A stretch of 64,000 bases of DNA from Escherichia coli (lineage in GTDB: Bacteria; Pseudomonadota; Gammaproteobacteria; Enterobacterales; Enterobacteriaceae), in assembly GCF_003334335.1 (NCBI RefSeq), contig NZ_QOWQ01000001.1. One strand, given 5' to 3'. Position 1 is the first letter of the stretch. The number at the start of each line of letters is the position of its first letter. The notes beneath the pieces were generated by a model, which did not search any database, was not told the DNA's origin, and was given only the letters and a program-made list of their open reading frames with translations. Shown here piece by piece: positions 27,474 through 28,536 of this stretch. A program made the translations under genes and the position numbers.

Positions 27474-27639
27474 TATTTGTAGCCCGACGTATTCGTCGGG
27501 CTAATGCCTTTACCCGATATTGCCTCCTTTTTCTGTAATTTTCTGTAAAACCATGACGTAATCACCTATCTTTGCTCGCGGTTTCATCAAGGATAGGCTG
27601 ACTGAAACGGTTAAGCGGACAAGGATGCGGGGGAGGGGG

Positions 27640-28536
27640 ATGGACATTTTTATTTCGAAAAAGATGCGCAATTTCATTTTATTAGCGCAAACCAATAATA
27701 TTGCCCGGGCGGCAGAAAAAATCCATATGACGGCTTCGCCATTTGGTAAAAGCATTGCCGCGCTGGAAGAACAAATTGGCTATACGCTATTTACCCGCAA
27801 AGATAATAATATCAGCCTCAATAAAGCCGGACAGGAACTGTATCAAAAACTGTTCCCGGTTTATCAACGGCTTTCTGCGATTGATAATGAAATCCATAAC
27901 TCAGGGCGTCGTTCACGAGAAATTGTGATTGGCATAGATAATACTTATCCGACAATTATTTTCGATCAGTTGATTAGTCTCGGAGATAAGTATGAAGGCG
28001 TGACCGCCCAGCCAGTTGAGTTCAGCGAAAATGGCGTTATCGATAATCTTTTTGACCGCCAGTTAGATTTTATTATCTCCCCACAGCATGTATCTGCACG
28101 AGTTCAGGAACTGGAAAACCTGACTATCAGTGAACTACCACCGCTGCGATTAGGCTTTCTCGTTTCTCGCCGTTATGAAGAGCGACAAGAGCAAGAGCTG
28201 CTTCAGGAGCTGCCCTGGCTACAAATGCGCTTTCAGAACCGGGCCAACTTCGAAGCAATGATTGATGCGAATATGCGACCTTGTGGGATCAATCCAACCA
28301 TTATTTATCGTCCCTACAGTTTTATGGCCAAAATCAGCGCCGTGGAGCGCGGACATTTTCTGACGGTGATCCCGCATTTTGCCTGGCGACTGGTGAATCC
28401 GGCAACGCTGAAATATTTTGATGCACCGCACAGGCCGATGTATATGCAGGAATATCTTTATTCAATCAGAAATCATCGTTATACCGCCACGATGCTTCAG
28501 CATATTGCTGAAGATCGTGACGGGACGAGTCATTAA
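27640..28536 (+). CDS. ygfI: LysR-family transcriptional regulator, 298 aa
   Basis: ORF 27625..28536 trimmed to MDIFISKKMRNF; N-terminal HTH and LysR substrate-binding domain; start choice uncertain by 5 codons. Confidence 0.8.
   Translation: MDIFISKKMRNFILLAQTNNIARAAEKIHMTASPFGKSIAALEEQIGYTLFTRKDNNISLNKAGQELYQKLFPVYQRLSAIDNEIHNSGRRSREIVIGIDNTYPTIIFDQLISLGDKYEGVTAQPVEFSENGVIDNLFDRQLDFIISPQHVSARVQELENLTISELPPLRLGFLVSRRYEERQEQELLQELPWLQMRFQNRANFEAMIDANMRPCGINPTIIYRPYSFMAKISAVERGHFLTVIPHFAWRLVNPATLKYFDAPHRPMYMQEYLYSIRNHRYTATMLQHIAEDRDGTSH

Follow-up and report, generated by a model that had tools for sequence, protein, structure and literature searches.

The Escherichia coli gene ygfI encodes a LysR-type regulator, and its stop codon overlaps that of the convergent gene scpC. 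This locus raises two questions: whether the gene is a laterally acquired or silenced insert, as an initial annotation suggested from its AT-rich composition, and which genes it controls. We analyzed a window of 64 kb, meaning the whole stretch of DNA studied here, which shows 7 mismatches to E. coli K-12 strain EMG2. The regulator gene in question is srsR (ygfI/dhfA, b2921), which has already been named and experimentally studied. K-12 SrsR, YgfI and DhfA are the same gene, and its DNA in our window is 100% identical to the K-12 records, with no differences. We propose that srsR is a member of an old gene module rather than an independent insert, and that it may control the neighboring scp operon, a reading to which we assign a probability of roughly 0.6. 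The elements in and around srsR are as follows.

27474-27639, plus strand: yggE-srsR intergenic region (srsR leader), GC 0.476
27480-27503, plus strand: yggE terminator hairpin UAGCCCGACG-UAUU-CGUCGGGCUA (folded), left border of the srsR leader
27533-27550, plus strand: conserved leader motif CTGTRA-N4-CTGTAAAA upstream of srsR, candidate promoter or operator
27640-28536, plus strand: srsR (ygfI, dhfA, b2921), LysR-type transcriptional regulator of 298 aa (RefSeq annotation)
28417-28432, strand not given: intragenic CRP site TTTGATGCACCGCACA at the 3' end of srsR
28533-28536, both strands: TTAA tetranucleotide holding both stops (srsR TAA on the plus strand, scpC TAA on the minus strand)

SrsR matches the NCBIfam equivalog NF047842 ('station_TF_SrsR') with 635.2 bits (cutoff 425) over profile positions 1-294 of 294. 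It consists of an N-terminal winged helix-turn-helix (Pfam HTH_1, PF00126; residues 8-65, E = 3.2e-13) and a C-terminal periplasmic-binding-protein-like effector domain (Pfam LysR_substrate, PF03466; residues 89-283, E = 4.4e-12). The similarity to characterized LysR proteins is weak, with CynR as the best other NCBIfam match (E = 5e-15) and a best PDB match of E = 5e-7, and SrsR has been called the sequence outlier among the E. coli LysR regulators of unknown function (PMC9308461). The mechanical open reading frame begins at 27625 (303 aa), and other genera share the ATG at 27640. Position 27510, from which the initial annotation let the feature start, does not belong to srsR; it is the end of a mechanical antisense frame of 81 aa (27510-27755). 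We regard this frame as spurious, as it covers the leader, whose length and sequence vary by genus.

The leader is 166-170 nt long in Escherichia, and other genera have leaders of 120-187 nt. At its left border, all type-A loci and most type-B loci have a GC-rich hairpin behind yggE that is equivalent to the yggE terminator. The leader motif is near-identical in Escherichia, Klebsiella, Citrobacter, S. arizonae and Pluralibacter, and in UBA7338 its second half alone is recognizable. A sigma-70 promoter scan of the srsR leader gave no match, and the three matches in the region are intragenic and not above chance. The search for structured RNA in 26500-35500 returned no Rfam match even at E <=1, so this interval holds no B12 riboswitch or known leader. 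The intragenic CRP site agrees with 8/10 consensus positions in E. coli and with 4-7/10 in other genera, and a CRP ChIP-seq target has been located within ygfI in ETEC H10407 (PMC4287617).

The AT-richness of ygfI is borne out by the numbers. Its GC of 0.446 and GC3 of 0.445 compare with means of 0.520 (sd 0.034) and 0.561 (sd 0.054) over 57 genes, which makes srsR the fourth lowest in GC among the annotated genes of the window (z = -2.2). The three genes below it are all <=444 nt long, and srsR is the lowest among genes longer than 500 nt. Equally AT-rich windows of 897 nt make up 2.1% of the 64 kb, and all the others cover long intergenic regions. Codon adaptation, with the highly expressed genes of the window as the reference set, is low rather than extreme (0.447, rank 6/57, z = -1.2). 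The leader, which had been described as AT-rich too, turns out to be slightly above the mean GC of the 31 intergenic regions in the window (0.459).

Comparing codon positions across genera revealed that the third position accounts for the difference between Escherichia and the rest. GC1 (0.54) and GC2 (0.35) of srsR are equal in Escherichia and non-Escherichia genomes, whereas GC3 is 0.434 in the former and 0.621 in the latter, a drop of 0.188 against 0.05-0.13 in seven neighboring genes. At conserved codons, changes from a G/C ending to A/T amount to 30/74 in srsR versus 168/720 in the neighbors (Fisher p = 0.0018). The GC3 deficit of srsR relative to its neighbors is 0.11-0.145 in Escherichia; for other genera it is about 0-0.05 at the yggE/argP site and reaches 0.09 at other sites, and outside Escherichia its GC3 lies within about 0-0.09 of that of the scp genes. 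Because srsR stays near its neighbors outside Escherichia, its AT excess developed in situ rather than being brought in from a donor. The low GC has two layers, in which an amino-acid composition short of GC-rich codons, common to all genera, is overlaid by an additional synonymous loss of G/C along the Escherichia stem. Candidate causes of the second layer are relaxed codon or GC selection and selection in favor of AT-rich DNA to which nucleoid proteins bind.

On its far side, srsR meets the scp (sbm) operon, whose genes are annotated on the opposite strand.

28533-30011, minus strand: scpC (ygfH), propionyl-CoA:succinate CoA transferase, last gene of the scp/sbm operon
30035-30820, minus strand: scpB (ygfG), methylmalonyl-CoA decarboxylase
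30831-31826, minus strand: meaB (argK/ygfD), mutase-associated GTPase
31819-33963, minus strand: scpA (sbm), B12-dependent methylmalonyl-CoA mutase, first gene of the operon

The distribution of srsR follows this operon. We found srsR in 5426/5426 complete E. coli genomes, at the same site in all five other Escherichia lineages sampled, and also in Citrobacter, Klebsiella, S. arizonae and Pluralibacter. In 30/30 sampled Enterobacterales srsR loci, which represent at least seven chromosomal contexts, the gene lies tail-to-tail with scpC-scpB-meaB-scpA. At the yggE/argP site, all 24 srsR loci carry the scp operon, and in 52 further loci both are missing and yggE abuts argP. The initial annotation had proposed to look for relatives that retain scpC without ygfI; none was sampled at the yggE site (24 with both, 52 with neither). 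Six more orthologues with 63-86% identity, from Yersinia, Hafnia, Sodalis and three other genomes, lie in the same arrangement of five genes within unrelated neighborhoods. Within Enterobacterales, the whole scp-srsR module has relocated from one chromosomal site to another. This mobility does not explain the composition of srsR, because the scp genes have ordinary GC.

SrsR identity is 92% in Citrobacter, 90% in Klebsiella, 91% in S. arizonae and 79% in UBA7338, which parallels the identities of the flanking genes, and its dN/dS of 0.02-0.05 is comparable to that of its neighbors and indicates purifying selection. We found no tRNA in 20000-40000, no direct repeats flanking the srsR borders, and no IS element or other mobility gene in the K-12 annotation of the region. 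Of the features expected of a recently acquired xenogeneic islet, srsR shows the atypical composition, while its distribution is not sporadic and its borders bear no mobility signatures. The suggestion of a separate lateral acquisition does not agree with a gene that is core to the species, under purifying selection, syntenic across genera and, in all 30 sampled loci, beside the scp operon. On the other hand, the body of the scp operon has been deleted from 1115/5426 E. coli genomes (20%), which nevertheless retain full-length srsR (annotated intact in 11/11 sampled rows), from which we conclude that SrsR has some scp-independent role in E. coli.

The overlap of the two stop codons on opposite strands, noticed in the initial annotation, is confirmed. 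The srsR TAA (28534-28536) and the scpC TTA (28533-28535) share the 4 nt TTAA, which is common to both coding sequences. The overlap is kept as YTAR (TTAA, CTAA, TTAG or CTAG) in 23/24 loci of the yggE/argP site and in Yersinia, and tail-to-tail packing (gap <=3 nt or overlap) is kept in 29/30 loci, with stop codons changed on both strands. The 4-nt YTAR form is the usual class of tail-to-tail overlap, because TAA/TAG is reverse-complementary to TTA/CTA. Within the window, yqfH/yqfG forms a second convergent overlap of 4 nt, and the remaining 8 convergent pairs have gaps of 39-205 nt. Since srsR and scpC are packed stop against stop, there is no room for a terminator between them, and each transcript must end inside the opposite gene. 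We found no intrinsic terminator downstream of srsR within scpC, and the search downstream of scpC, inside srsR, gave only weak 5-bp stems.

The target of ygfI, considered not evident from the sequence, has in the meantime been addressed in several studies with mutually discordant results (PMC9181523, PMC9068703, PMC8464067). In one of them, SrsR binds DNA at the box TCAGATTTTGC, its gene is barely detectable in exponential phase, induced about 25-fold in stationary phase and repressed by Nac, and the protein affects biofilm formation and peroxide tolerance (PMC9181523). A stress role with activation of stationary-phase genes was assigned by gSELEX, gel shifts, footprint, RT-qPCR and phenotypes, and the gSELEX with purified SrsR yielded 10 loci, without the scpA promoter (PMC9181523). 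Other work assigned the protein, as DhfA, to dihydroxyacetone and formate metabolism by ChIP-exo at dhaK and RNA-seq; ChIP-exo of YgfI in glucose M9 gave dhaK and mdtL alone, again without the scpA promoter (PMC9068703, PMC8464067). The gSELEX and ChIP-exo target sets do not overlap, and neither study considered the scp operon. Reporter assays refuted one of the proposed targets, fucAO (PMC11011485). That neither genome-wide binding study placed SrsR at the scpA promoter speaks against a link between SrsR and scp. So does the published box, which at <=2 mismatches occurs in neither the srsR leader nor the scpA promoter and is not enriched in the window (28 matches versus 24.8 expected). Our literature searches found no paper connecting ygfI/SrsR with sbm/scp, and none reporting H-NS binding at ygfI.

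Upstream of scpA, we notice two further elements.

34040-34070, minus strand: conserved 31-nt dyad CAAAAAACGA-N13-TTTTTTTTG, candidate operator of the module
34092-34107, strand not given: CRP-like site TGTGATGTGATTCAAG upstream of the dyad, by consensus resemblance only

The dyad is built of the inverted half-sites GCAAAAAA and TTTTTTGC and ends 76 nt before the ATG of scpA, on its upstream side. Each module-bearing locus has a single copy, in every case upstream of scpA, and module-less loci have none, although these counts are partly circular because the pattern was derived from those same loci. The pattern has one match in the window versus 0 expected. In loci L089/L090 (Sodalis) and L093 the sequence around the dyad is unalignable, and the matches there give independent support. 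The half-sites have TTTTGC in common with the published SrsR box (PMC9181523). The dyad is a candidate operator of the module, with its center estimated near -60 by the promoter layout that we infer. The neighboring CRP-like site is kept as TGTGA-N6-TCAAA in Escherichia, Klebsiella, Citrobacter and S. arizonae.

Based on these observations, we suggest that srsR belongs, as the fifth gene, to an old relocatable module, srsR-> <-scpC-scpB-meaB-scpA, which would have resided at yggE/argP since before the split of Escherichia, Citrobacter, Klebsiella and Salmonella arizonae. The ancestral, and probably still primary, job of SrsR would be to control the scpA promoter, via the conserved GCAAAAAA-N15-TTTTTTGC dyad, according to a metabolite that it senses from the succinyl-/methylmalonyl-/propionyl-CoA pathway. 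A bolder form of this proposal, which we advance tentatively and at slightly less than even odds, takes SrsR as the missing regulator dedicated to the 'sleeping beauty' methylmalonyl-CoA mutase operon and the five genes as one regulon-in-a-box that moves as a unit, with SrsR acting at the dyad upstream of scpA when it responds to a pathway acyl-CoA or organic acid. Through the obligatory stop-to-stop convergence, transcription of operon and regulator would then be able to interfere, which would build a feedback into the module. That the operon is silent in K-12 and that srsR has drifted towards AT in Escherichia would reflect a circuit that has decayed or been rewired in this genus, in which case binding studies in K-12 would give scattered, inconsistent targets.

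Other explanations account for parts of these data. It is very improbable that ygfI is a foreign gene that arrived on its own and fairly recently, AT-rich from its donor and subject to H-NS-type xenogeneic silencing, and the acquisition part of this idea is largely refuted. In its favor, GC and GC3 have values at which composition methods typically call a gene alien, codon adaptation is low, the protein has been described as the sequence outlier among E. coli LysR regulators of unknown function (PMC9308461), and the gene is almost mute in exponential phase and induced 25-fold in stationary phase (PMC9181523); yet every complete E. coli genome and five other Escherichia lineages have it at the same site, and its syntenic orthologues in Citrobacter, Klebsiella, S. 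arizonae and Pluralibacter diverge in step with the flanking genes. Beyond the scp-deleted E. coli, no srsR locus without the scp operon was seen in the loci examined, and neither tRNA or repeat borders nor an IS annotated in K-12 accompany it. GC3 near that of the neighbors outside Escherichia also contradicts a donor origin. We rejected replacement of the allele from a low-GC enterobacterium as well, since the proteins of the nearest lower-GC relatives, Yersinia and Hafnia, are just 71-72% identical, compared with 92% in Citrobacter.

The AT-richness could instead have no biological meaning, srsR being simply a weakly expressed regulator rich in Ile/Asn/Lys/Phe/Tyr codons and the overlap the commonest neutral form of convergence. 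GC1 and GC2 that are low in all genera, a codon adaptation just 1.2 sd under the window mean, the generally usual YTAR overlap and the second example at yqfH/yqfG fit this explanation, but we consider it unlikely. It does not account for a GC3 deficit that is marked in Escherichia and small in other genera, for the excess of changes to A/T at conserved codons, or for the equally poorly expressed scp genes, which did not shift; nor does it predict tight packing that outlasts stop-codon changes on both strands, when the other 8 convergent pairs of the window are spaced apart. A more serious possibility, though still on the doubtful side, is that SrsR/DhfA is a stationary-phase stress or dihydroxyacetone/formate regulator with no functional tie to scp, and that the adjacency is a historical accident. 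The experimental evidence for both roles (PMC9181523; PMC9068703, PMC8464067) and the intact srsR in the 20% of E. coli genomes with scp deleted argue for it. However, the two data sets lack a common target, and fucAO failed in reporter assays (PMC11011485). The adjacency in 30/30 loci, across at least seven contexts and down to 63% identity, is hard to account for without functional coupling, and the module-specific dyad upstream of scpA points in the same direction.

This analysis adds the comparative context of srsR, namely its co-inheritance with the module, the conservation of the stop overlap, a synonymous AT shift specific to Escherichia, and the dyad at scpA. The case also advises caution in reading composition, since a GC3 about 12 points under the neighbors here marks a core syntenic gene and not an import. 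The physiological role and the regulation of the sbm/scp operon in E. coli are still described as unclear, and the SrsR and DhfA regulons are disjoint; co-inheritance (30/30 sampled loci) and the module dyad make the SrsR-scp link concretely and cheaply testable. Such a link is relevant to engineering propionate, 1-propanol and odd-chain products via the scp operon.

Compared with known systems, srsR resembles the H-NS-silenced, horizontally acquired AT-rich genes of E. coli in its low GC and GC3 relative to the neighborhood and its low basal expression (PMC9181523), but differs from them in being core, syntenic, under purifying selection and free of mobility signatures, with an AT excess that arose in place. 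LysR-type regulators are usually, though not obligatorily, divergent from their target operon. In contrast, srsR has the co-directional yggE upstream and is convergent with its proposed target operon, overlapping the last gene scpC, which also speaks against the SrsR-scp link. It lies 6.4 kb from the scp operon promoter, unlike divergent LysR regulators, so no one binding site can be used for autoregulation as well as for control of the operon. A shared T-N11-A site for autoregulation typifies the family without defining it, and the published SrsR box is absent from the srsR leader. By its estimated position, the dyad would sit roughly where a LysR recognition site is expected. In its two-domain architecture, its size and its genetic linkage to a metabolic operon, SrsR is like the classical LysR-type regulators CynR-cynTSX, IlvY-ilvC and CatM/BenM.

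The AT-rich LysR-type regulator gene that the initial annotation called ygfI is already known as srsR. The window is E. coli K-12, with 7 positions differing from strain EMG2 (NZ_CP099588.1, 789614-853613), and the gene is arranged in it as follows.

Gene order: epd-pgk-fbaA-mscS-argO-yggE-> srsR-> <-scpC-scpB-meaB-scpA <-argP
27640-28536, + strand: srsR CDS (formerly ygfI, also dhfA, b2921), 298 aa, RefSeq

The mechanical ORF of srsR opens at an ATG at 27625, and the start common to other genera is 27640. SrsR carries the Pfam domains HTH_1 (residues 8-65) and LysR_substrate (residues 89-283) and scores 635 bits against the NCBI SrsR equivalog model (cutoff 425). 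It is a divergent LysR protein: after SrsR itself the closest family is CynR (E = 5e-15), and the top match among solved structures has E = 5e-7. A 76-aa 'LysR substrate-binding domain' fragment, annotated at 35202-35432 between argP and rpiA, is the relic of another gene of the LysR family. In the E. albertii type strain NBRC 107761 (comparison locus L008, 10912-11808), we notice a premature stop at about codon 193 of srsR, where Trp becomes a stop within 'QELP*LQMRF'; in this strain the gene is probably a pseudogene.

The AT-richness of srsR is confirmed by its composition. Among the 57 annotated CDSs of the window, all tested by translation and all clean, srsR has a GC of 0.446 and a GC3 of 0.445, compared with window means of 0.520 and 0.561 (z = -2.2). 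Its GC is the fourth lowest, the three lower genes all being 444 nt or shorter, and only 2.1% of 897-nt windows are equally AT-rich, all others of them straddling long intergenic regions. The first half of the gene has a GC of 0.41 and the second 0.48. Codon adaptation, with the highly expressed genes of the window as reference, is low (0.447, rank 6 of 57, z = -1.2), though not remarkably so. The leader (27474-27639), also described as AT-rich, is not so: its GC of 0.476 is not below the intergenic average of the window, 0.459.

Such a composition had been taken as a sign of lateral acquisition or silencing. We found srsR in all 5426 complete E. coli genomes, with coverage of at least 80% in 5406; the cases below 80% include IS1 insertions and a deletion adjoining an IS1 copy. 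In 80 Enterobacteriaceae loci fetched through YggE, with neighbouring genes mapped, the order yggE-srsR-scpC-scpB-meaB-scpA-argP occurs in 24: the window itself, five Escherichia lineages, the Klebsiella oxytoca group, the Citrobacter freundii complex, C. amalonaticus, S. enterica arizonae, a Pluralibacter MAG and UBA7338. In 52 loci, including Enterobacter, Kluyvera, Raoultella, Kosakonia, Lelliottia, Trabulsiella, Pseudocitrobacter and K. indica, yggE is directly convergent with argP, the two being separated by an apparent spacer (0-187 nt, mostly 28-110 nt) that holds one hairpin. The remaining 4 are uninformative, stopping at yggE or having other DNA downstream. In none of the 80 does either srsR or the scp operon occur without the other, so that no relative was seen to keep yggE and scpC while lacking ygfI. 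One Citrobacter MAG (locus L021, 845-10802) lacks srsR-scp as well as argP over the 10 kb downstream of yggE and carries other ORFs there, which suggests a different insertion or rearrangement at this site.

SrsR identity to the E. coli protein is 91-92% in Citrobacter, 89-90% in Klebsiella, 91% in S. arizonae and 79% in UBA7338, parallel to the values of the flanking proteins. A protein search extended the set to distant orthologues (63-86% identity) at six loci, from Yersinia, Hafnia, Sodalis, a Kosakonia-like genome, 'Aeromonas sp. MdU4' and 'Martelella alba'. All six have srsR and scpC-scpB-meaB-scpA arranged tail-to-tail, and the surrounding genes differ from locus to locus and are unrelated. 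The 'Aeromonas sp. MdU4' module (locus L092, 14956-16897) adjoins BMC shell, PduV/EutP, EutQ and cobalamin adenosyltransferase genes, a B12-related neighbourhood; given the 86% SrsR identity, that organism label looks doubtful. No tRNA genes, annotated mobility genes or flanking repeats were found at the module borders in the window, and srsR dN/dS (0.02-0.05) is in the range of its neighbours. Because srsR lies beside scpC-scpB-meaB-scpA in all loci that carry it, in unrelated contexts, it is one gene of a five-gene module relocated as a unit; the module, too, deserves to be kept in view. Acquisition of ygfI alone is not borne out by its presence throughout E. coli, the module synteny and the lack of mobility signatures.

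Codon-aligned orthologues point to two components of the AT-richness. GC1 (0.54) and GC2 (0.35) are equal in Escherichia and non-Escherichia and both low relative to neighbouring genes; this part belongs to the SrsR protein. GC3 is 0.434 in Escherichia versus 0.621 elsewhere, a drop of 0.188, and seven neighbours drop by 0.05-0.13. In each Escherichia lineage, srsR GC3 is 0.11-0.145 below its neighbours, compared with only about 0-0.05 in Klebsiella, Citrobacter, Salmonella and UBA7338; in Yersinia, Hafnia, Sodalis and other distant loci it is about 0-0.09 below the scp genes. Where the amino acid and the first two codon bases are conserved, G/C-ending sites became A/T-ending in Escherichia at 30 of 74 sites in srsR and 168 of 720 in neighbours (Fisher p = 0.0018). 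Synonymous divergence of srsR is the highest of eight genes between K-12 and E. whittamii (0.86), and likewise between K-12 and C. youngae. Because the GC3 deficit and the G/C-to-A/T excess are specific to Escherichia, the AT excess must have originated in situ, along the stem of Escherichia. This synonymous shift is worth keeping.

The reported 4-nt overlap of the ygfI and scpC stops is exact: the srsR stop TAA (28534-28536) and the scpC stop TTA (TAA on the minus strand, 28533-28535) share TTAA. It is kept in 23 of the 24 module loci between yggE and argP, with TTAA, CTAA, TTAG and CTAG all occurring; the exception is S. arizonae, with 15 nt. At distant loci the overlap is 4 nt in Yersinia, 9 nt in Sodalis and 30 nt in the Kosakonia-like genome; the genes abut in 'Aeromonas' MdU4 (0 nt), a 3-nt gap occurs in Hafnia, and a real spacer (128 nt) is present in 'Martelella' alone. 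Gaps of 39-205 nt separate the genes of the eight other convergent pairs in the window that do not overlap, and the only other 4-nt convergent overlap there is that of the small-protein genes yqfH (+) and yqfG (-) at 61803-61996. We found no terminator-like site downstream of srsR within scpC, and only weak 5-bp stems downstream of scpC within srsR, so both transcripts must extend, in antisense, into the opposite gene. This deeply conserved stop-to-stop convergence also merits keeping. The observations of the initial annotation were thus largely correct; its interpretation of a foreign or silenced gene with no known target is mostly unsupported or outdated.

Two further elements lie in the leader and the gene.

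27533-27550: leader motif CTGTRA-N4-CTGTAAAA, just after the yggE terminator
28417-28432: CRP site TTTGATGCACCGCACA, inside srsR

The leader motif is kept in Escherichia, Klebsiella, Citrobacter, Salmonella and Pluralibacter and is a candidate promoter or operator. The CRP site is an intragenic one within ygfI that was reported from ChIP-seq of ETEC H10407 (PMC4287617); it matches 8 of 10 consensus positions in E. coli and is poorer in Klebsiella and the Citrobacter freundii complex. An unusual G-rich ribosome-binding site, GGGGGAGGGGG (27629-27639), abuts the start codon, and a C/U-rich stretch, GCCUCCUUUUUCUG (27522-27535), is predicted to pair with it in Escherichia only (fold z-score -2.7). 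Such pairing would be relevant only if srsR transcription starts upstream of 27522.

The statement that the target is not evident is overtaken by the literature. Kobayashi et al. (PMC9181523) described a target set and the SrsR box TCAGATTTTGC. They also reported that srsR mRNA increases 25-fold in stationary phase and that SrsR affects biofilm formation and survival of H2O2, and they cited repression of srsR by Nac. ChIP-exo in glucose M9 gave two sites, dhaK and mdtL (PMC8464067 supplement), and the two target sets do not overlap. The name DhfA derives from RNA-seq of a deletion mutant (PMC9068703), and fucAO reporter assays showed no SrsR role (PMC11011485). The scp operon goes unmentioned in both target papers (PMC9181523, PMC9068703), and none of the papers searched ties ygfI/SrsR to sbm/scp. 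Regulation of the scp/sbm operon has been described as unresolved (PMC3850637), and upstream of it we observed a dyad.

34040-34070, - strand: 31-nt dyad, 76 nt upstream of the scpA start, reading CAAAAAACGACGTCTGAATGCATTTTTTTTG
Its half-sites including flanking bases: GCAAAAAA / TTTTTTGC, layout GCAAAAAA-N15-TTTTTTGC

The dyad is conserved in modules of Escherichia, Klebsiella, Citrobacter, Salmonella, the Kosakonia-like genome, 'Aeromonas' MdU4, Sodalis and 'Martelella', with a one-base variant in Yersinia, Hafnia and UBA7338. Each of 29 module-bearing loci has exactly one match to the pattern CAAAWAAYGA-N10-18-TTTTTTG, in every case upstream of scpA; module-less loci have none, and the window has one against 0 expected. 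The count is partly circular because the pattern was written from some of the same sequences. Independent support comes from the Sodalis (L089/L090) and 'Martelella' (L093) matches, where the surrounding sequence is unalignable. The dyad is a candidate operator of the sbm/scp operon.

The counter-evidence to SrsR acting there is substantial. Neither published binding study has an SrsR signal at scpA. A deletion running from mid-scpA to within 153 nt of the scpC stop has removed the scpC-scpB-meaB body in 1115 of the 5426 complete E. coli genomes; this lineage retains full-length srsR (about 96-97% identity) and the TTAA overlap. An example is FDAARGOS_144 (locus L084, 8125-9219), where the middle of scpA is fused to the final 153 nt of scpC and both srsR and the overlap are intact. 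Since these genomes lose the scp body yet keep srsR, SrsR has some scp-independent use in E. coli.

Control of the "sleeping beauty" methylmalonyl-CoA mutase operon by SrsR through the conserved dyad is put forward as a testable proposal. The dyad ends 72-76 nt before the scpA ATG in Enterobacteriaceae and 109 nt in UBA7338. Putative scpA -10 hexamers are TATTCG in Citrobacter, TATTTG in Klebsiella, TACTTA in Yersinia and TATAAT in Sodalis; the putative -10 at 34002-34016 reads TAAGCG in other E. coli and TAGGCG in K-12 (compared with loci L004-L008, L010 and L025), which would fit, and may contribute to, the silence of the scp operon. If such a hexamer is the -10 element, the dyad centre would lie near -60. 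LysR recognition sites usually lie near -60, and the dyad half-sites have TTTTGC in common with the published SrsR box.
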